Source: Methanosarcinales archaeon (lineage in GTDB: Archaea; Halobacteriota; Methanosarcinia; Methanosarcinales; Methanocomedenaceae). From it: DNA of 32,000 bases. The DNA lies in the NCBI GenBank assembly GCA_030600695.1, contig JAUVLO010000004.1, positions 1-32,000 of the forward strand. Reading direction: 5' to 3'. Shown here one piece after another: positions 607 to 28,655 of this stretch (within the stretch, counting starts at the first letter, position 1; each line of letters opens with the position of its first letter). The translations under genes were made by a program, and so were the position numbers. The notes under the pieces were generated by a model. That model did no database searches and was not told the DNA's origin. It worked only from the letters and a program-made list of their open reading frames with translations.

Positions 607-651
607 TCCCAAATATAAAAGGGACACTGTATCATATTTCAGTTTTGTTCA

Positions 652-763
652 CGTATAGGAAATTATAAACGCATTTCGATATCGATATAGTTAATTTTTA
701 TTGGTCTCAATCAAATCTTTTGACAGGATTTACAGGATTGGAACGTATCCTGTCAATCCTGTC
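652..763 (+). repeat. E1 repeat: conserved ~70-nt flank with the tcgatatcga palindrome, plus an ACAGGAT-unit hairpin (722-763)
   Basis: gtataggaaattataaacgcatttcgatatcgatatag...tcaatcaaatcttttgacaggatttacaggat-tggaacgt-atcctgtcaatcctgtc. An inverted copy lies at 11333-11469. Confidence 0.8.
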
Positions 764-814
764 TAAAATTTCCAATTTATTGAGATATGGATTTCACGTT
801 GCATCGTCTGTGCA

Positions 815-980
815 TATTGAATAGTCGCCGCCGCCAACAGTTGAAATATATATTCTGTGTAATTTTTAAGACGCATAGTACACAGAGACACACAGAGCGT
901 TTTTTCCCATACTCTGCGTACTTCTGCGCACTCTGCGGTTAATATCGAATTGATTCCAGGCCCTATTGGTTCTTTCAATC
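815..980 (-). repeat. A-type repeat, diverged copy A0, with a CGCAGAG-unit hairpin (881-938)
   Basis: Shares tgaatagt...gccgccgcc..gttgaaatatatat...hairpin...ttctttcaatc with copies A and B, but the hairpin units differ (cacagag/ctctgcg). Confidence 0.65.
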
Positions 981-981
981 A

Positions 982-1050
982 CCCTGCCACCGCAGCCCGC
1001 AAGGGCGGCAGTGTGGCAGCCAGCCTTATGGATTCGTGCGAGTTTGGAAC
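982..1050 (+). repeat. F repeat copy 1 (GC-rich imperfect hairpin module)
   Basis: ccctgccaccgcagcccgcaagggcggcagtgtggcagccagccttatggattcg...ttggaac. The second copy is at 5627-5695. Confidence 0.75.
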
Positions 1051-1175
1051 CGCAGATAAACGCGGATGAACGCAGATATTATAGCTAAAATTTGATTATA
1101 TTTAAATTTACACTGCATAATTATAATTAAAACCCACAATCGCCGTTATCTGTGTTCATCTGTGTTCATCTGTGG
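1050..1175 (+). repeat. Inverted 28-nt stuttered arms (CGCAGAT units) flanking a 70-nt AT-rich spacer
   Basis: Arms are ccgcagataaacgcggatgaacgcagat (1050-1077) and atctgtgttcatctgtgttcatctgtgg (1148-1175). By hand there are 23 Watson-Crick pairs, 4 G:T pairs and 1 mismatch. Confidence 0.8.
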
Positions 1176-1243
1176 TTAATACTGAAATAAATATAGTTGG
1201 CGTCCTTTCTGCACTAACCCACTCCTAAACTGATGCCTTCGTA

Positions 1244-1439
1244 CGGGTGCCCATGCGCTGAGTGTGGGGCACGGGAGTGAATAGTAGAGTGTGCTGCCAG
1301 CAGCGGCTATGGCTGTGAAAATATATAATTTATGAAATACTGTACAGCAAAGCACGCAAAGTAAAGGGCACAACGTCTTTGCGAACTTCGCGCTCTTTGC
1401 AGTGAAACACTTAACGGCACCCTTCAATCTGCATGCCTC
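1244..1439 (-). repeat. A-type repeat copy A, with a GCAAAG-unit hairpin (1347-1400)
   Basis: Near-identical to 2254-2469: cgggtgcccatgcgctgagtgtggggcacgggagtgaat...gaaaatatataatttatgaaatactg...gtctttgcgaacttcgcgctctttgc...gcacccttcaatctgc. Confidence 0.85.
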
Positions 1440-1605
1440 GGTGGTTAATATTGAAATGATTGCCAGCCACAGTCCCATTATATGCTCTCACGCCCCCCTC
1501 CTGTGCTGGTGCCTGGATGCGGGGCATATGCGCTGGACGCGTAGATTGGGATTTAATAATAGTGGGATCCCCCGCGCTAAAGCGTGCGTTGATCAGTAAA
1601 AAAAG

Positions 1606-1863
1606 TCAATAGACGTTTCCACGAACTCCGATATCTTCAATAATTACTGTATTTTTATCACTCTCTATTCTATAGACGATTCTATACTTCCCAACGCGCA
1701 AACGAAACTTGCCCGCCAATTCCCCTTTTAACATTTTAATGTTCTTACCGGAAGCAGGTTTTTCCAGTAATGTTTCAATTGCACGATTAATTCTCGCTGT
1801 ATTTTTATCATCGAGTTTGTTATAGAATTTAACAACTCGATCGTGAAGAAGGATTTCATACAT
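1606..1863 (-). CDS. Type II toxin, RelE/ParE family
   Basis: 85 aa with ...KMLKGELAGKFRLRVGKYRIVYRIESDKNTVIIEDIGVRGNVY, the characteristic RelE/ParE C-terminal pattern. It overlaps the upstream small ORF by 8 nt. An oligo-T run follows the stop on the minus strand. Confidence 0.8.
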   Translation of the reverse strand: MYEILLHDRVVKFYNKLDDKNTARINRAIETLLEKPASGKNIKMLKGELAGKFRLRVGKYRIVYRIESDKNTVIIEDIGVRGNVY

Positions 1864-2101
1864 GGCGTTTCACTTTGTTCCATGAAGTGAATTCCTGCAT
1901 TTTACCCATCTCCCATGCCTGATCAGCAGTTCTAATATTTCGCATTGACTCTTCATCAGCAAGAATTTCAAGGGTAGCATCAAGTTCTTCTTTTTGTTCG
2001 AGATATTCGATAAAATCGAGAACTACTTTTAATCTATCAGGTGATAAGACATCCAACTTTTCAATTGCTTTTCTTTTATAATTAACTACATGAACTGCCA
2101 T
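1856..2101 (-). CDS. Putative antitoxin partner of the RelE-family toxin
   Basis: 81-aa ORF translationally coupled to the toxin by a 4-codon-scale overlap, in the usual antitoxin-first order. No family signature recognised by eye. Confidence 0.6.
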   Translation of the reverse strand: MAVHVVNYKRKAIEKLDVLSPDRLKVVLDFIEYLEQKEELDATLEILADEESMRNIRTADQAWEMGKMQEFTSWNKVKRHV

Positions 2102-2253
2102 TATCTTGCCTCCTGTTATAGAAACTGAATTAATTAATATTAATACTATGCAATAGGTTGCCTCATAATCTCATTAAAGTGAGAACTTTGCCACCAACTT
2201 CCATTATGTACGATATATCTGCCCGACCATAGACGGTCTGGTTTGCCTCCCTG

Positions 2254-2469
2254 CGGGTGCCCATGCGCTGAGTGTGGGGCACGGGAGTGAATTGTGGAAT
2301 GTGCTGCCGGCGGCGGCCATGGCTGTTGAAATATATAATTTATGAAATACTGCACCGCAAAGCACGCAAAGGACGCAAAGTTAAGGTCACAACGTCTTTG
2401 CGAACTTCGCGCTCTTTGCGGTGAAACAATCAACAGCACCCTTCAATCTGCGTGTATCTGCATGCCTCT
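2254..2469 (-). repeat. A-type repeat copy B, with a GCAAAG-unit hairpin (2353-2423)
   Basis: Direct-orientation copy of 1244-1439 on the other side of the relE cassette. The hairpin has 3 units per arm: caccgcaaagcacgcaaaggacgcaaag / ctttgcgaacttcgcgctctttgcggtg. Confidence 0.85.
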
Positions 2470-2776
2470 GCGTTTTATGCTACCCAGCCTTGGCCCGTTC
2501 CCCCCACTTCTCCACTCTCCCGCCGCCCGTCATTCTGTATTTGTCCACATCTCAAAACATATAGATCAAGCTTAAATAGATTTATATATAATTCATACAT
2601 ATGAGTATAATGATGATTGTGGGCGGGTACAATTTTTATAACTAACCCCCACTCCCAAACCCCCGCTCACAAATTCATCATTTGTGGAACTAATGAAGTG
2701 GTGTTTTTTTAAACCATGGATTGTTGTGATATTCCTGATTGCCAACTTTAGTAAACCAGATAATGTCTATGTTGCA

Positions 2777-9492: not shown

Positions 9493-9570
9493 TAGTATAC
9501 TGAACTGTATCCTCAAAAAGAAGTGACTTTTTAATTTATTCTGGATAAATGGATCGTGGCAAAAAAGATT

Positions 9571-9640
9571 CACCGCAGAGGACACAGAGAGGCGCAGAGA
9601 TGTGTTGTTTTTCTCTGTGTGCCTTTTTGCTCTATGCGGT
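9571..9640 (+). repeat. Decayed CGCAGAG-unit stuttered hairpin followed by an ATATATATTT box (A-type module in + sense)
   Basis: caccgcagaggacacagagaggcgcagag-atgtgttgttttt-ctctgtgtgcctttttgctctatgcggt, then ...gtgatatatattttatcc about 60 nt downstream. Confidence 0.6.
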
Positions 9641-9766
9641 TTTTTGAATAGTCCCAGTAAATAATAAAAAGTCTCGTAATTCATGGCAACAGTGATATAT
9701 ATTTTATCCACTGCCGAAATTTTCCGAGTCCTAAAGAATCGACCCGGCATCCTTTCATTTTAATAA

Positions 9767-10827: not shown

Positions 10828-10926
10828 ACCAAACCTATTTTCTTAAAAGAATATAAACGTTGTTCTCTGTTTGTTTTTGGCCTCACACATGAAAATTAAG
10901 TATATGGAGACAAATGGCTGCCAGCT

Positions 10927-11145
10927 GTGGCAGTGCTTCAGGTGCTCTGCCTCTACGGACTGAGCAGTGCATACCTGAAAACCACAGAAAACCTCTATCT
11001 CGCAGCCGGACAGCCCAAGATCATGACAAAGATCAACCTTTTGCAGCTTATCTTAATGGCAGTACTGATCTATCCCTTAACCCTCAGATACGGCATCCCC
11101 GGAATAGGAATAGCAGCGGCAGTACCGCCCGCGCTGGTACTTTAG
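10927..11145 (+). pseudogene. Internal fragment of a Wzx/MOP-type flippase
   Basis: ...LYLAAGQPKIMTKINLLQLILMAVLIYPLTLRYGIPGIGIAAAVPPALVL* resembles the penultimate TM pair of flippases. It has no N-terminal body and ends at TAG, after which plausible hydrophobic sequence continues. Confidence 0.35.
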
Positions 11146-11332
11146 ATCGGCCTGGGTGCGGTAAGTCAACAGACTGTTGTTATTGTAAATACACTGTGGT
11201 ATATTTAGGCATTCCTAAGTATATAGTTTGTGAAAGATTTACAAGGCTTTTATTGCGAACAATGAATAACTCTTTATACTCAAATTATTCTGGCAAATGG
11301 GAGGATTTTCGTGGTGACTTTATGGACCTGAT

Positions 11333-11469
11333 TTACAGGATGCACAGGATGCACAGGATGAGGATGTCAACCAATATCCTGTAAATCCCGTAAATCCTGT
11401 CTGAAGATTTGATTGAATTTAAGAAAATTACTTATATCGATATCGAAATGCGTTTATACTTTCCTATAC
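11333..11469 (-). repeat. E1 repeat, inverted copy, with an ACAGGAT-unit hairpin (11335-11401)
   Basis: The reverse complement reads tgtataggaaagtataaacgcatttcgatatcgatataagtaattttc...tcaatcaaatcttcagacaggatttacgggatttacaggat... Confidence 0.8.
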
Positions 11470-11676
11470 ATTAAATAAAATTATAAATAAATGAATTCTT
11501 GAGATTTGCAGCTATTCCGCAATCAGGCAATTTTCTTAAAAACCATTGACCTTCTATAAAATTAGCACTCAAAATGTTCTTTAGAGACAACATTCATCCA
11601 GGCAAGTAGTCACTCGTTGACGATTATAATTGTCCGGATGCGTTTTGAACACAAAAATCAAGAAAAACTGGCTAAC

Positions 11677-13485
11677 ATGAAAGATATAATTACAAGCTCC
11701 AGGGAAGAATTGGCAAGATTATTATGGAAGTCTGACCCTACTATTCACAGGATACTGAAGAATAGTATTAACTTCCATGATTCCAGGAATGAGATTTTCC
11801 GTTATTTAAATGGTATAGATGCATCATTGTTCACAATATATTCCCATAGTAAACAGGATATGAATATCCTGGAAAAAAAGAATGCGCGGGATTGCATAAG
11901 GGTTCTAAAGACCATTTTGCGGACCCAAAATGAAAAACAAACACATTTCTCGGCTCTAAGGGCTTTGTATAGCATTGCAAAGAAAAACAAGGTACCTAAG
12001 AATATCAGTGAGGGGTTCCTTTTCGAGTTTATTTACCTGTTCAGGGGAATTAATGGGAATTCCGGGTTATTGGCTGAAAAAGAAAAACCTCCATTTCTAG
12101 ATCTCGATGGAATGGATGCCGCCCTTGAGAGAACAAAGTTCCTTGATGATTATTCTAAAAGAATGGACCTGTCTTTTAAGAAATACAGGACCGGTCTGGA
12201 CCATGACCTGGTCCCTGAAAGAGATGATATGAAAAAACGTATTTTACAGCAATTCGGTGGAGATGAGGAGGACTGGACTGACTACAAATGGCACCTGGGC
12301 CATATTATTTCTGATATTGATACGCTCCAAAATGTGGTAACATTGGACAGGGGGGAAATACGTGGTCTTAAATTAGCTATTGAAAATAATATCCCGTTCC
12401 AGATAACACCGTATTACTTATCCTTATTTGACAGGGAGAACCGGAAACAATATGACCATTCTATAAGGGCACAGGTGCTGCCCAGTGAGACGTACTGCCA
12501 GAACTATTTAAAGAGCATCCGGACAGGGGCAAGCCTGGATTTCATGGATGAGGCTTCGACCAGCCCTATTGAAACCATTACCAGGAGATATCCTAAGATA
12601 CTTATTTTAAAACCGTTTCAATCATGCCCACAGATTTGTGTCTATTGCCAGAGGAACTGGGAGATCAAAAGTCTTCAGGATGGTAGTATAACGAAGGAGA
12701 CTACATTAAAGGCGATTGACTGGATAAAAGCCAATCCGCATATCAGCGAAGTGCTGGTAACGGGAGGCGACCCGTTGACGCTGAACGATTCCATTCTTGA
12801 CAGGCTCCTTGGCATGATCTCTGACATCGAACATGTGGAACGGATCAGGATTGGGACCCGGACGCTGGTAACACTGCCTTTCAGGTTTACAGACAACCTG
12901 ATCGATATCTTTAGTAAATATCACAAGCTGGGGAAACGGGACGTGTGCATCGTGACACATTTCCAGCATCCTACTGAGATCACTCCTGACACTATTGATG
13001 CGGTGTCAAGGATCAAGAAACAGGGCATTAATATTTACAACCAGCAGGTTTTTACTTATTATAACAGTAAGAAGTTCGAAAGTTGCCTGCTTAGAAAAAC
13101 CATGACGAGATCAGGTATCGATCCCTATTATACTTTTAACACCAAGGGCAAGGAAGAGACTATAGATTACCGTGTACCTATCTCAAGGCTTGAGCAGGAA
13201 CGACATGAAGAAGCCAGGCTCCTCCCAGGACTGGAGCGAACTGATGAGTCGGTGTTCAATGTACCCAGGCTGGGTAAGTCCCACCTGAGGGCGTGGCAGG
13301 ACCATGAGGTGATCATGATACTTCCGGATGGCAGGCGTGTGTACCGGTTTTATCCATGGGAGTCCAAGATGGAGCTTGTGGAGCCTTATAATTATGTGGA
13401 TGTGTCCATATACCGCTATTTAAAACGGTTGTATTATGATGGCGAGGATGTTGATGAGTATAAGTCCATATGGTATTATTTCTGA
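11677..13485 (+). CDS. KamA-family (lysine 2,3-aminomutase-like) radical SAM/PLP enzyme with a ~215-aa extra N-terminal region
   Basis: CPQICVYCQRNW is the CxxxCxxC cluster. WTDYKWHLGHII...IPFQITPYYLSLFD is the KamA N-terminal motif. VTGGDPL is present, and NVPRLGKSH carries a candidate PLP lysine. I prefer the ATG at 11677 within track ORF 11617..13485. Confidence 0.8.
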   Translation: MKDIITSSREELARLLWKSDPTIHRILKNSINFHDSRNEIFRYLNGIDASLFTIYSHSKQDMNILEKKNARDCIRVLKTILRTQNEKQTHFSALRALYSIAKKNKVPKNISEGFLFEFIYLFRGINGNSGLLAEKEKPPFLDLDGMDAALERTKFLDDYSKRMDLSFKKYRTGLDHDLVPERDDMKKRILQQFGGDEEDWTDYKWHLGHIISDIDTLQNVVTLDRGEIRGLKLAIENNIPFQITPYYLSLFDRENRKQYDHSIRAQVLPSETYCQNYLKSIRTGASLDFMDEASTSPIETITRRYPKILILKPFQSCPQICVYCQRNWEIKSLQDGSITKETTLKAIDWIKANPHISEVLVTGGDPLTLNDSILDRLLGMISDIEHVERIRIGTRTLVTLPFRFTDNLIDIFSKYHKLGKRDVCIVTHFQHPTEITPDTIDAVSRIKKQGINIYNQQVFTYYNSKKFESCLLRKTMTRSGIDPYYTFNTKGKEETIDYRVPISRLEQERHEEARLLPGLERTDESVFNVPRLGKSHLRAWQDHEVIMILPDGRRVYRFYPWESKMELVEPYNYVDVSIYRYLKRLYYDGEDVDEYKSIWYYF

Positions 13486-25451: not shown

Positions 25452-26672
25452 ATGGATAACTCAATAGCCAAACCTTCCGGTAAAACGGGTTTTGTAACTA
25501 CCCCGGATACACAGGATGAAGATATACAATCATTAATTATAAAGATCGAGCAACTTGATGATCAGAACGACCAGCTCCAGAAACGACTACTTGATGCCGC
25601 TGTAGCCAACAGCAATTACCTGCAGACCATACAGAAACTCAAGGAACAGGTAAACCAGTTGAAACTACCACCCCTGTTCATTGCATCAGTAATGGAAGTT
25701 GTCAGTGATATGGCACTGCTGCGCCAGCATGGCAGTAACCAGGAAGTTATCACCCGCATCCCGCCTGAAATGGGAGATGAACTGGAAGCAGGTATGAGGG
25801 TTGCAGTGAATAACGGTTTTGTGATTGTCAAACTACTGGCAAAGCCGGCTGACGTAAGGGCCAGGGTCATGGAACTGATCGAGGCACCAAATGTGGATTA
25901 CAGTTCCATAGGCGGGCTTGACCAGCAGATCCAGGAAGTAGTGGAAACAATTGAACTCCCGCTCACCGATCCGGACCTGTTCAGGGATGTTGGTGTGGAA
26001 CCACCAACAGGCATACTTCTATACGGGCCGCCAGGTAGCGGTAAGACCCTTATTGCCAAGGCGGTGGCCAGCCGGGCCAATGCCACATTCCTCAGGATGT
26101 CAGGTTCTGAACTTGTCCAGAAATACGTAGGAGAAGGTGCAAGGCTGGTACGTGATGTGTTCCAGATGGCAAGGGATAAGGCACCATGTATTGTTTTCAT
26201 AGACGAGATCGATGCCGTGGGCGGGCACAGGACACACGACGGCACCACAGGGTCAGCCGAGGTGAACAGGACCATGGTACAACTCCTGTCCGAGCTGGAT
26301 GGTTTTGAGGAGCGGGGTGAAGTAAAAATAATTGCGGCCACCAATCGTATTGACCTGCTGGACCCTGCCCTGCTGCGGCCGGGACGGTTCGACAGGATCA
26401 TCGAGATACCTATGCCAGATGAAAAAGGCAGGCTGGAAATATTCAAGATACATACCAGGAACATGGCCATGGACAATGATGTTGACCTTGACAAGCTGGT
26501 GAAGATGACCAAGGACCTGAGCGGTGCTGACATAAAGGCCATCGTCACAGAAGCGGGCATGTTCGTGATACGCAGGCGGGACAGGACTATCAAGATGAAT
26601 GATTTTATTGATGCCTACGACAAGGTGATCACTGACGAGCATGAAGAAATCCCGGAAGGCATGTTCGCCTAA
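25452..26672 (+). CDS. pan: Proteasome-activating nucleotidase (PAN)
   Basis: N-terminal coiled coil, OB region, and an AAA module GILLYGPPGSGKTLIAKAVA...IVFIDEIDA...ATNRIDLLDPALLRPGRFDR. I prefer the ATG at 25452 over the TTG at 25443. Confidence 0.9.
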   Translation: MDNSIAKPSGKTGFVTTPDTQDEDIQSLIIKIEQLDDQNDQLQKRLLDAAVANSNYLQTIQKLKEQVNQLKLPPLFIASVMEVVSDMALLRQHGSNQEVITRIPPEMGDELEAGMRVAVNNGFVIVKLLAKPADVRARVMELIEAPNVDYSSIGGLDQQIQEVVETIELPLTDPDLFRDVGVEPPTGILLYGPPGSGKTLIAKAVASRANATFLRMSGSELVQKYVGEGARLVRDVFQMARDKAPCIVFIDEIDAVGGHRTHDGTTGSAEVNRTMVQLLSELDGFEERGEVKIIAATNRIDLLDPALLRPGRFDRIIEIPMPDEKGRLEIFKIHTRNMAMDNDVDLDKLVKMTKDLSGADIKAIVTEAGMFVIRRRDRTIKMNDFIDAYDKVITDEHEEIPEGMFA

Positions 26673-26692: not shown

Positions 26693-27295
26693 ATGACCGA
26701 ATTACTAACACCGGATGAGGGGCAGACTGCCCTGGAACTGGCACGTACGGCCATTAAGGAATACTTGGGCAGTGGTGAAGTGATCAAGCCCGAAAGTCTC
26801 CCAGGTATCCCTGAACCCCCAGGTCTCCCACCTGTATTCAAGAATAACAGGGGCGTATTCGTCACTTTAAATAACAGGTCCGGCTCCCGCAGAGAACTGC
26901 GAGGGTGTATTGGCAGGCCCTACCCGGTCATGCCGCTGGGTGAAGCAATTGTGATCTCTGCTATTAATGCTGCTACGGAAGACCCCAGGTTCATGCCTGT
27001 TACTCTCAATGAACTGGAGAATATAGATATCGAGGTCACAGTGCTTACTACGCCGCACCGGCTGGAAGCAAGACCTGAAGAACTGCCCGGTATGATTGAG
27101 GTGGGCAGGCATGGACTGATCGTGCAAAAGGGGCCGTACTCGGGACTATTGCTGCCCCAGGTAGCTGTGGAACATGATTTTGATGCAGAGGAGTTCCTGG
27201 GCCAGACCTGCATGAAGGCGGGATTGTTCCCTGATGCATGGTTCGAGTCTGATACTGAGGTACTTGCCTTTGAAGGGCAGATATTTCATGAGTGA
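26693..27295 (+). CDS. AMMECR1-domain protein
   Basis: GVFVTL...LRGCIG...DPRF.PV...EVTVLT are AMMECR1 motifs. Confidence 0.85.
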   Translation: MTELLTPDEGQTALELARTAIKEYLGSGEVIKPESLPGIPEPPGLPPVFKNNRGVFVTLNNRSGSRRELRGCIGRPYPVMPLGEAIVISAINAATEDPRFMPVTLNELENIDIEVTVLTTPHRLEARPEELPGMIEVGRHGLIVQKGPYSGLLLPQVAVEHDFDAEEFLGQTCMKAGLFPDAWFESDTEVLAFEGQIFHE

Positions 27296-27318
27296 TAATA
27301 AAAGTGCAAGCTATAAAT

Positions 27319-27369
27319 CATGTTAATATTATTGTTATTAATATTCATGTTAATATTATTGTTAATATG
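27319..27369. repeat. Tandem repeat, 2 x ~25 nt, just downstream of the AMMECR1 gene
   Basis: catgttaatattattgttattaatatt / catgttaatattattgttaatatg. Confidence 0.8.
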
Positions 27370-27417
27370 ATATTTGCGGCACAGTTCCAAAATCCAGTGA
27401 TATCAACAATTATATTA

Positions 27418-27627
27418 GACGCAGATTAACGCTGATTAACGCAGATGCAGTATCCACTTTAAATCTAAGGGTAATTTAAAAATTATTAGACAGGATTAAC
27501 AGGATCGACAGGATATACCGCAACGCAACATCCTGTAAATTCTGTAAATCCGGTCAAAATACCATGCTTTTTGAAGTGGATACCAGATGCAACCTTAAAT
27601 CAGCGTAAATCTGCGTGAATCAGCGTC
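27418..27627 (+). repeat. Nested stuttered hairpins: outer CGCAGAT/CGCTGAT arms enclosing an inner ACAGGAT hairpin (27489-27555)
   Basis: Outer arms are gacgcagattaacgctgattaacgcagat and aaatcagcgtaaatctgcgtgaatcagcgtc. The inner hairpin is gacaggattaacaggatcgacaggatat-accgcaacgcaac-atcctgtaaattctgtaaatccggtc. Confidence 0.8.
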
Positions 27628-27688
27628 TTGAAAATAACTGGAAAATGGGACAGTGTCGATATTTGCAAGGAAAAGGAAGTAAAATATA

Positions 27689-27994
27689 ATGGAATTTTGC
27701 CCTAAATGTAAAAGTATGATGATGCCCGCAGGCAGCATGATGAAATGCCGGAAATGCGGTTTTGAGAAAGAGAAGACCAAAAAGATCATTGAAAAAAAAG
27801 AATTCAAGGAAAGAGAGGTCACGGTCCTGGAGGGCGATGAGGCGGCAGGCCTTCCTACTATCAAGGTCAAATGTGAGGAATGTGGTAATAAAACTGCTTA
27901 CTGGTGGCTAAGGCAGCTAAGGTCGGCAGATGAGAGTGAGACCAGGTTCTTCAGGTGCACCAAATGCGGCCGGACCTGGAGAGAGTACGACTAA
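27689..27994 (+). CDS. tfs: Transcription factor S (TFS/RpoM-like)
   Basis: N-terminal Zn ribbon CPKC...CRKC and C-terminal ribbon CEECG...[17 protein letters not shown], with the acidic DE hairpin. Confidence 0.9.
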
Positions 27995-28250: not shown

Positions 28251-28655
28251 CTATATTTTATTTCCAGGATATCCTGGCGGTGTTGGCGCAGGAAATTGTG
28301 AACCAACCGATACCACATCTCCACTGTATGTCACGAAAACATTCACACGTTTATGCGTTCCATTAACTATCTTGATCGAAACTTGATACATCTCCTGTCC
28401 ATCGAAAACAGCTTTGCTCACATCGTAAATTTCATAATCGCTGTTATTTACCATAATAAGAGTTCTCGAATCATTTAAGGCAATGGACACAGCATCCTCT
28501 TCACTGATTTCCTTGTTCTCAAGACACCCACTTAACAAAATAGCTATAAATAAAATATAAATAGCAAGTATGGGGATCAGAACCCCATACCGATTGCCTA
28601 ATTCAACAATTTTCTTTCGATCCACATACATCATATTAATCCATCTACGAATCAA
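28251..28655 (-). CDS. Small membrane-anchored hypothetical protein
   Basis: 134 aa with one TM helix (YGVLIPILAIYILFIAILLSG) and a lipobox-like GC, followed by a small soluble domain. Located downstream of mfnA. Confidence 0.5.
   Translation of the reverse strand: MIRRWINMMYVDRKKIVELGNRYGVLIPILAIYILFIAILLSGCLENKEISEEDAVSIALNDSRTLIMVNNSDYEIYDVSKAVFDGQEMYQVSIKIVNGTHKRVNVFVTYSGDVVSVGSQFPAPTPPGYPGNKI

Follow-up and report, generated by a model that had tools for sequence, protein, structure and literature searches.

Prokaryotic MITEs, such as the Correia/NEMIS elements of Neisseria, the SM elements of Sulfolobus and the pneumococcal BOX, RUP and SPRITE elements, are small, AT-rich, non-coding and intergenic sequences that are present in multiple copies, carry terminal inverted repeats and are flanked by target duplications of fixed length. 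They can be positioned just upstream of genes, their transcripts are predicted to form long hairpins, and small repeat elements insert into one another in bacteria (prokaryotic MITE review, PMC10969869). A REP is a palindrome of 20-40 nt with a terminal GTAG or CGTC tag and a stem of 5-13 bp; such short extragenic palindromes are often paired into larger hairpins (REPIN, BIME), are uneven among strains and include some families without a known dedicated transposase (PMC3733652). Abundant intergenic heptamer repeats are found across distant lineages in the form of the TAACTGA repeats of Beggiatoaceae and cyanobacteria (PMC4679880).

The locus described here shares the MITE properties listed above, including the mutual insertion and, across metagenome contigs and MAGs, the multiple copies. 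It differs from the described elements in its host, an ANME-2a archaeon, which is not among the MITE-bearing archaea in PMC10969869; in its centre, which consists of three heptamers per arm with a 9-10-nt period; and in its nesting, which is at or beside the palindrome apex. It is located in a 32,000-nt stretch of contig JAUVLO010000004.1 of a Methanosarcinales archaeon (hereafter the window; coordinates count from its first letter), where an earlier note had described a hairpin within a hairpin upstream of tfs. This structure very probably forms the centre of nested non-coding MITEs, a composite of 280 bp that is present as a lineage-specific insertion upstream of tfs. The composite agrees with the MITE definition in its size, inverted termini, duplications, lack of coding sequence and polymorphic presence, and the cognate IS alone is missing. 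The two elements, named MITE-A and MITE-B, have lengths of 138 bp and 134 bp, respectively, and the longest stop-free stretch of the 280-bp composite is 42 codons.

When the window was analyzed with a repeat search, a pair of outer arms (27417-27446 and 27599-27628; 30 nt, 83 % complementary, 152 nt between them) and a pair of inner arms (27486-27514 and 27530-27558; 29 nt, 79 % complementary) were observed. Each outer arm consists of three CGCAGAT/CGCTGAT units with a 10-nt period and each inner arm of three ACAGGAT units with a 9-nt period. On the + strand, 27410-27635 (226 nt) folded as RNA with an energy of -78.4 kcal/mol (z = -8.6), the - strand reached -77.3 kcal/mol (z = -7.5), and z was -7.9 with DNA parameters; the fold was matched by none of 200 shuffles. 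Three-heptamer arrays at a 9-10 nt period were found 11 times in the window versus 0 times in 60 dinucleotide shuffles. The nested palindrome at 27417-27628 is real, strongly non-random and far from chance.

The hairpin within a hairpin reported earlier is confirmed by the repeat search and by z values of about -8 on either strand, and the fold energies, which the earlier note had proposed to compute for both strands, proved about equally stable. Pfam supported its identification of AMMECR1 and tfs, and the distance of about 60 nt that it had given before the tfs start was found to be 61 nt, counted from the end of the right outer arm to the ATG (27689); the end of the 280-bp insertion is 31 nt from the ATG. 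The right outer arm is followed by TTGAAAAT. It had also been stated that the outer arms pair perfectly when slipped by one unit. Complementarity indeed rises to 94-95 % over the arms when they are shifted by one unit, and this holds as perfect pairing for the heptamers but not for the spacers between them. In the unshifted register, a central A:A or T:T clash is present in each unit, in line with the same note. The inner ACAGGAT hairpin had been called perfect in architecture; it does have three units per arm, but the units of its right arm (ATCCTGT, ATTCTGT and ATCCGGT) are imperfect. Three features were absent from that description: a middle tier, in which GTATCCACTT (27450-27459) pairs with AAGTGGATAC (27574-27583), an outermost tier of terminal inverted repeats (27378-27398 and 27637-27657), and two pairs of flanking direct repeats. 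All features of the locus are listed in Table 1.

Table 1 Features of the AMMECR1-tfs locus, with coordinates in the window
Feature	Position	Strand	Evidence
AMMECR1 gene, upstream neighbour	26693..27295	+	Pfam AMMECR1, E = 2.9e-52
MITE-A target-site duplication, left copy GATATTTGC	27369..27377	.	identical 9-mer at 27658-27666; single copy GATATTTGG in L001, L002
MITE-A left terminal region; terminal inverted repeat GGCACAGTTCCAAAATCCAGT = 27378-27398	27378..27417	+	pairs with 27637-27657; recurs elsewhere in L201-L218
MITE-A palindrome, left arm and first loop bases	27418..27449	+	same arm in canonical copies L215, L212, L218
Left-arm units of MITE-A palindrome	CGCAGAT 27420-26, CGCTGAT 27430-36, CGCAGAT 27440-46	+	sequence, repeat search
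MITE-B target-site duplication, left copy CAGATGCA	27442..27449	.	same 8-mer at 27584-27591; both abut MITE-B ends
MITE-B left end (GTATCCACTTTAAATCTAAGGGTAAT...)	27450..27488	+	inverted repeat with 27556-27583; homologous end in L006 221-245
Inner three-unit ACAGGAT palindrome	27489..27555	+	repeat search; missing from L006 MITE-B copy
ACAGGAT palindrome, left units	27490-96, 27499-505, 27508-14	+	loop 27515-29
ACAGGAT palindrome, right units	27530-36, 27539-45, 27548-54	+	sequence, repeat search
MITE-B right end (...TTTTTGAAGTGGATAC), with T5 tract 27568-27572	27556..27583	+	inverted repeat; L006 homology
MITE-B target-site duplication, right copy CAGATGCA	27584..27591	.	matches 27442-27449
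Rest of MITE-A loop (ACCTTAA) and palindrome right arm	27592..27627	+	sequence, canonical-copy alignment
Right-arm units of MITE-A palindrome	ATCAGCG 27599-605, ATCTGCG 27609-15, ATCAGCG 27619-25	+	sequence, repeat search
MITE-A right terminal region TTGAAAATAACTGGAAAATGGGACAGTGTC; terminal inverted repeat 27637-27657	27628..27657	+	exact 21-mer in 18 metagenome stretches
MITE-A target-site duplication, right copy GATATTTGC	27658..27666	.	matches 27369-27377
tfs gene	27689..27994	+	Pfam Zn_ribbon_TFIIS, Zn_ribbon_RPB9

The orthologous spacers were compared as the earlier note had suggested. In a species-representative genome collection, the closest relatives of the AMMECR1 protein were found in six ANME-2a loci (L001-L006), which places the window in ANME-2a near Candidatus Methanocomedens, with amino acid identities to the window of 87-92 % over the full protein and 88-94 % over the best segment; AMMECR1 in other ANME-2 and in Methanoperedens loci is more distant from the window. 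Tfs shares 94-97 % amino acid identity with the same six loci, and an exact-protein look-up with Tfs returned no match. The order AMMECR1 to tfs is kept in all six, with a spacer of 78-123 nt versus 393 nt in the window, and the 280-bp insertion (27378-27657) is missing from every one of these six spacers. Since it is missing from the closest relatives, the insertion lies outside the conserved AMMECR1-tfs arrangement. Two of the relatives (L001 and L002) align base for base with the window on either side of a 289-nt gap. They contain a single GATATTTGG where the window contains GATATTTGC, 280 nt and GATATTTGC again, and therefore represent the empty version of a site that is filled in the window, with a 9-bp target-site duplication. 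Presence is thus polymorphic: the tfs spacer is empty in L001-L006, and a TYW2 spacer is filled in an ANME-2 MAG locus (L007) and empty in the window.

On the evidence of sequence comparison, the outer structure is a 138-bp MITE-A with terminal inverted repeats and a central three-unit CGCWGAT palindrome. Metagenomes were scanned for its right terminus using ACTGRAAAATGGGACAGTGTC as the query, and 18 stretches were returned. A canonical MITE-A has 138 nt, of which 40 nt form the left end and 30 nt the right end, on either side of the palindrome GACGCAGATTAACGCTGATTAACGCAGAT-GCAACCTTAA-ATCAGCGTAAATCTGTGTGAATCAGCGTC; its terminal inverted repeats (GGCACAGTTCCAAAATCCAGT and ACTGGAAAATGGGACAGTGTC) are conserved across copies and imperfect (17/24). 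When 27450-27591 was removed from the window copy, the canonical copies were 94-98 % identical to it: the 138 nt that remain share 97.8 % identity with L215 and 94.2 % with L218 and L208. The metagenome copies occupy unrelated sites. In total, MITE-A was observed at no fewer than six distinct sites across metagenome contigs and MAGs, and the 32-kb window contains besides only a degenerate terminus at 623-643. Five sites, including the window, have their own duplications of 8-9 bp, namely TTTTGACAA (L218), CGCTGAATG (L203), CTATATGA (L207) and G[T/A]GGTAATT (L215) in addition to that of the window, and a sixth (L208) is without any. Of these duplications, those of the window, L218 and L203 have a length of 9 bp and those of L207 and L215 one of 8-9 bp. 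The right terminus is found in L007 at 96 % over 27 nt, as part of an element of about 210 bp upstream of TYW2. This copy forms a subfamily with those in L203 and L207, which has the shared termini but a CACAGAT-type three-unit palindrome inside.

All full-length canonical MITE-A copies that were aligned have the alternation of A and T in the middle of the units that gives rise to the slip. As it is conserved in copies elsewhere, the slip is a trait of the MITE-A family and not a property of this locus. The register shifting and alternative structures suggested earlier are not specific to tfs, and no evidence of a functional switch was found.

MITE-B (27450-27583, 134 bp) ends in GTATCC...GGATAC (GTATCCACTT...AAGTGGATAC) and interrupts the MITE-A palindrome where the left arm meets the loop. 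An 8-bp duplication, CAGATGCA, directly adjoins MITE-B on both sides. When 27450-27591 was excised in silico, the result (CGCAGATGCAACCTTAAATCAGCG) was exactly the loop of the uninterrupted MITE-A copies. MITE-B copies were found in the window and in L006 only. The latter (221-334) stands alone, has another interior and is flanked by TATTTTTG, an 8-bp duplication of other sequence. MITE-B is absent from all 18 MITE-A copies of the metagenomes, so its insertion was a secondary event, seen in the window copy only, and it is this insertion that placed the outer arms about 150 nt apart. The earlier suggestion of a nested insertion is therefore substantiated by the empty orthologous spacers, by a MITE-B with its own 8-bp duplication and by the excision that restores the loop. 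One insertion does lie within another, but the arrangement is not simply ACAGGAT in CGCAGAT, as a GTATCC...GGATAC MITE lies between the two and terminal repeats lie outside.

The ACAGGAT palindrome is the centre of MITE-B in the window and is absent from MITE-B in L006. The same type of palindrome was found elsewhere in the window (718-766 and 11334-11401), in other ANME-2a contigs (L197-L199 816-877, L200 10835-10898 and L212 1685-1735) and, by blastn, in bacterial replicons, namely plasmid pTs485 of Thiodictyon syntrophicum, where it forms an AT-rich island within GC-rich DNA, and three plasmids of Spirosoma oryzicola. The window and Spirosoma have in common an asymmetric, imperfect right arm, ATCCTG[T/C]AAATTCT[GT/AC][A/T]AATCCGGTC, which argues for homology. 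No clear target duplication was found around the ACAGGAT palindrome in the window. The palindrome may be a third insertion or the original or swapped-in core of the window MITE-B; its exchangeability between MITE-B copies is partly demonstrated and otherwise putative.

Fixed-length, sequence-variable target duplications beside inverted termini are the signature of the staggered cuts of DDE transposases. Because duplications of this kind lie next to the inverted termini here, mobilisation of the DDE type is inferred. The locus was assembled by insertion of MITE-A into the AMMECR1-tfs spacer, 31 nt before the tfs ATG, with duplication of 9 bp (GATATTTGC), followed by insertion of MITE-B at the MITE-A left-arm/loop junction with duplication of 8 bp (CAGATGCA). 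The inner hairpin is the ACAGGAT three-unit palindrome central to MITE-B, a module whose exchangeability is shown in part. MITE-A and MITE-B would have been mobilised in trans by transposases encoded elsewhere, with staggers of 9 bp and 8 bp, respectively. Mobilisation in trans is put forward here as a probable step only, since neither an autonomous element nor a transposase with matching termini turned up in the window or the fetched loci. Transposase domains were absent among the ORFs of the window and the fetched loci, long-range terminus pairs were absent from the fetched loci, and the MITE-A and MITE-B termini had 0 matches in viral contigs.

Other palindromes have received insertions as well. 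A group II intron with matches to Rfam RF02005 and RF00029 is present in a CGCAGAT palindrome of L211, 2-5 bases from the arm/loop position that is equivalent to that of MITE-B, and in L201, L202 and L206 an additional partial hairpin with an inverted loop was observed at the same arm/loop position. Class C group II introns follow terminator stem-loops and others are attC-associated, so that a hairpin serves as the landing site. The intron near the CGCAGAT arm/loop junction in L211 resembles these hairpin-homing introns, whereas the elements inserted in the window are of other kinds than introns and are flanked by target duplications. A third family, MITE-C, which is also present in the window (about 9520-9675), is inserted in L208 within the right end of MITE-A with the duplication TAAAAATA, and insertion is therefore not limited to palindrome apices. 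The apex of an existing palindrome nevertheless appears to be a favoured landing site for mobile elements.

Palindromes with this architecture (a 7-mer repeated three times in direct orientation with a period of 9-10 nt, then a loop and three copies in inverted orientation) are found beyond this locus and this organism. At least seven were found in the window, and the hosts comprise ANME-2a, Methanoperedens, Bacteroides, Spirosoma, Thiodictyon and IMG/VR contigs of 58-70 % GC, which contain both CGCAGAT and ACAGGAT versions. The 7-mers seen include CGCAGAT, ACAGGAT, CGCAAAG and CACAGAG. Partner units co-vary in Bacteroides finegoldii (e.g. CGCGGAT with ATCCGCG and CACAGAT with ATCTGTG). A CGCAAAG palindrome encloses a CGCAGAT palindrome in Methanoperedens (L017), and hairpins within hairpins were also observed in L135, L319 and L330. 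The near-identical MAG contigs L198 and L199 differ concertedly in one arm only, and in a Spirosoma locus (L341) with two right arms it is the more distant one that the left arm fits perfectly; these cases suggest that arms are swapped or rebuilt as whole units. At the bare three-unit palindromes, the distribution of the best 8-mer matches equalled the shuffled-flank null, without a sign of target duplications. Matches to period-9 arrays in IMG/VR were mostly coding repeats, with an inverted partner in only 14 of 180 and 24 of 348. The loci of acylphosphatase homologues, which served as a route to the spacers of other hairpins in the window, did not have conserved synteny and were used for the palindrome census. 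A common CTGGAWAAATGG flank motif linking all hairpin elements was considered and rejected, as the pattern matches were mostly chance matches in coding DNA.

The TAACTGA arrays share with these palindromes the abundance of intergenic heptamer repeats across distant lineages. They are, however, direct repeats arranged head-to-tail with a period of 7, whereas the heptamers of the present palindromes have gaps of 2-3 nt between them, form triplets and invariably have an inverted triplet as partner. The heptamers of the cyanobacterial STRR sequences are comparable head-to-tail direct repeats. One tentative and rather doubtful idea is that the three-heptamer palindromes are a distinct cross-domain selfish module, which would spread or be regenerated in a hairpin-dependent manner, target palindrome apices and use MITEs as carriers. 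The shared heptamers and architecture in several hosts, the lack of target duplications, the repeated nesting and the arms exchanged as whole units speak for such a mode of spread, short of establishing it.

Three other explanations of the structure were weighed against nested MITEs. It could be a structured RNA of tfs (a 5' leader, a riboswitch-like element, an sRNA or a processing site) or a terminator or insulator between AMMECR1 and tfs. The very stable predicted fold, the filled spacer on the coding strand of AMMECR1 and tfs, and the T5 tract of MITE-B (27568-27572) would suit such a role. Archaeal RNA polymerase terminates at oligo-T. The T5 tracts within the insertion are single, however, one per strand, and no stem-plus-T-run terminator was found at the insertion; within 27200-27800, a single terminator-like site (27264-27280, inside AMMECR1) was called by a bacterial-type (sigma-70 promoter) scan, whose promoter calls are not applicable to an archaeal host. 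Both strands fold equally well. An Rfam search over the window at the gathering threshold returned tRNA only, and sub-threshold hits in 27300-27700 were exclusively chance matches of the microRNA type, as were those for the bacterial-type hairpins in L113. Equal folding of both strands, together with the missing Rfam match, points to palindromic DNA rather than to a strand-specific RNA. In addition, the element is missing from all six of the closest orthologous spacers and is found beside unrelated genes with target duplications. Transcripts of MITEs do form hairpins able to affect expression (PMC10969869), but any RNA effect would be a by-product of the insertion and not the origin of the structure. 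We consider an origin as a structured RNA or terminator improbable, and the terminator or insulator role proposed in the earlier note finds no support in the sequence.

Spread of a REP- or REPIN-like palindrome as a single-stranded hairpin, driven by a RAYT- or IS200/IS605-type Y1 (HUH) transposase, is even less probable. Hairpins dominate the structure, the outer palindrome starts with GACG and ends with CGTC (compare the CGTC-tagged REPs in PMC3733652), and target duplications are not enriched at the bare three-unit palindromes of bacteria and IMG/VR, which resemble REPs in this respect. An IS200-like HUH motif was also read by eye in Methanoperedens L014 and L015. Y1 transposition (IS200/IS605) leaves no target duplications, whereas MITE-A and MITE-B have clean, variable duplications of 8-9 bp at independent sites. 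The arms of 27-30 nt with three periodic heptamers contrast with REP stems of 5-13 bp and loops of 2-20 nt (PMC3733652), the ends vary between copies and families (GACG, ACCG, ATCCG and GACAGG) and no RAYT gene was seen nearby. A REP/REPIN identity was rejected, as the sequences do not have the tag and stem of the definition and MITE-A and MITE-B have target duplications. The least probable of the three is a protein-binding array (an operator, iteron or centromere-like array) in which six heptamers one helical turn apart regulate tfs. A period of 9-10 nt does put the units on one face of B-DNA, and the conservation of CGCAGAT and ACAGGAT in very distant hosts suggests sequence-specific recognition. 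The arrays are missing from the orthologous tfs promoters, though, and are therefore not a native tfs operator; they travel within elements that have target duplications, and no candidate binding protein is encoded nearby. As part of the explanation by nested MITEs, the heptamers may be candidate binding sites, most plausibly for the mobilising enzyme.

With nested MITEs as the preferred explanation, the insertion would bear on tfs expression through its position. In the empty-site version, a TATAAAT box is located about 61-55 nt upstream of the tfs ATG, so that transcription would be expected to start about 30 nt before the ATG, at the position of the duplicated GATATTTGC. As the insertion is at the expected start, the ancestral promoter would now be 289 nt away from tfs. 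Either a structured leader of 289 nt, with the whole palindrome and the T5 tract at 27568-27572, would precede the gene in its transcript, or transcription would begin from a promoter-like A/T box in MITE-A. Such a box, AAAATAAC (TATAAAAATAAC in L007), lies about 22 nt from the right terminus of MITE-A. At four of eight distinct sites, the right end is followed at 31-43 nt, in the same orientation, by the genuine start codon of a gene (tfs, TYW2, an ABC ATPase and a K+ channel). This suggests a putative outward promoter at the right end of MITE-A.

Searches for publications on MITEs of ANME/Methanosarcina or Bacteroides, on heptanucleotide hairpins and on these repeat strings returned none. 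At least three ANME MITE families with 8-9-bp duplications, for which no published description was found, insert into each other and are dense in a 32-kb window. The heptamer-triplet palindromes occur in Archaea as well as in several bacterial phyla; they may represent a repeat class not yet described and are the part of these findings that may be new. The conservation of their heptamers points to a shared enzyme that recognises them or to recurrent horizontal transfer, and their apices may serve as insertion sites for other mobile elements, a group II intron among them. The striking structure at tfs is selfish DNA, not a conserved regulator, and its insertion has probably rewired the promoter and leader of tfs in one ANME-2a lineage.

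Metagenome stretches carrying the right terminus of MITE-A (the 138-bp non-coding element found upstream of tfs) were compared. At one genomic site shared by closely related contigs, the insertion is structurally variable (L201, L202 and L206 versus L215, L212 and L214). In one variant the loop (TTAAGGTTGC) is inverted and an extra partial hairpin is present, and another has a right end with an 11-nt duplication (AAAATAACTGG twice). These variants indicate rapid rearrangement at the MITE-A palindrome. In stretch L211, a CGCAGAT palindrome has the right half of MITE-A. A group II intron without an ORF interrupts this palindrome where its left arm meets the loop, and the intron's position is a few bases from the point at which MITE-B, the 134-bp element with an ACAGGAT palindrome, is inserted in the window copy.

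A third family, MITE-C, has the ends GTGACTTTTTAATTTATTCTGG and CCCAGTAAATAATAAAAAGTCTC and a three-unit CGCAGAG core. In L208 it interrupts a copy of MITE-A in the right end and is accompanied by an 8-bp duplication (TAAAAATA). Two ANME-2a contigs, L198 and L199, are 99.5 % identical around MITE-C and show a concerted difference confined to the left arm (CGCAGAG-type versus CACAGAG units). Interleaved ACAGGAT arms were also observed in Spirosoma oryzicola (L341). Of two right arms, it is the more distant one that agrees with the left arm (GACAGGATTAACATGATTTACAGGAT) at 25/25 positions, variant unit included. The right arm that sits between these two is different, and this pattern suggests arm re-synthesis or template switching.

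Coordinates of the features described in this part
Feature	Sequence	Position
ACAGGAT palindrome and flank	window	11334-11470; 655-766 (reverse)
ACAGGAT palindrome and flank	L197-L199	816-945
Interleaved ACAGGAT arms	NZ_CP089545.1 (L341)	25862-26007
156-codon ORF	window	10914-11384
Likely non-coding spacer	window	10828-11616
Repeat-dense stretch	window	607-2776
Its palindromes and half-palindromes	window	718-766; 870-938; 1049-1177; 1347-1435; 2354-2422; 2446-2474
Its ~90 % identical copies	window	1234-1435; 2244-2454
MITE-C	window	~9520-9675
MITE-C	L208	8300-8640
MITE-C	L198 and L199	~12330-12470
Group II intron	L211	~200-905 (Rfam RF02005 236-512; RF00029 797-900)
27-nt tandem duplication	window	27320-27367
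~20-nt tandem repeat	window	28005-28056
Extra ORF	window	28251-28655 (minus strand)

The ACAGGAT palindrome was found three times together with a conserved flank of ~65 nt (AAGATTTGATTGAA..TATCGATATCGAAATGCGTTTATA..TTTCC) containing a TATA-like GCGTTTATA. In L197, a UDP-glucose dehydrogenase gene starts ~40 nt downstream of this unit. In the window, the 3' end of a 156-codon ORF lies in the palindrome. This ORF has an Arg/Cys-rich, low-complexity translation and no Pfam match and is probably not a gene; thus, the surrounding region is likely a long non-coding spacer. A gene-poor stretch of ~2.1 kb is crowded with three-heptamer palindromes and half-palindromes. It also contains two segments that are ~90 % identical copies, spaced ~1015 nt apart. 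The ORFs called there overlap the repeats and look spurious.

Around tfs, an AT-rich promoter-like segment (TCATGTTAATATTATTGTTA...) directly 5' of the MITE-A insertion is tandemly duplicated in comparison with L001, the closest relative. Close downstream of the tfs stop, another tandem repeat (CAGNTACCYRCATATTCCAA) is present in 1 to 4 copies across the relatives L001-L006. The extra ORF between tfs and the mfnA-like decarboxylase had no Pfam match and is missing from several of these relatives (L002 and L004-L006).

At four of the eight distinct sites compared (the window, L207, L203 and the ANME-2 locus L007, against L215, L208, L218 and L204), a genuine start codon lies 31-43 nt 3' of the MITE-A right end, and element and gene share one orientation. 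A AAAATAAC or TATAAAAATAAC box lies ~22 nt inside this end. This spacing and the box hint that MITE-A targets promoter-proximal sites or carries an outward promoter.
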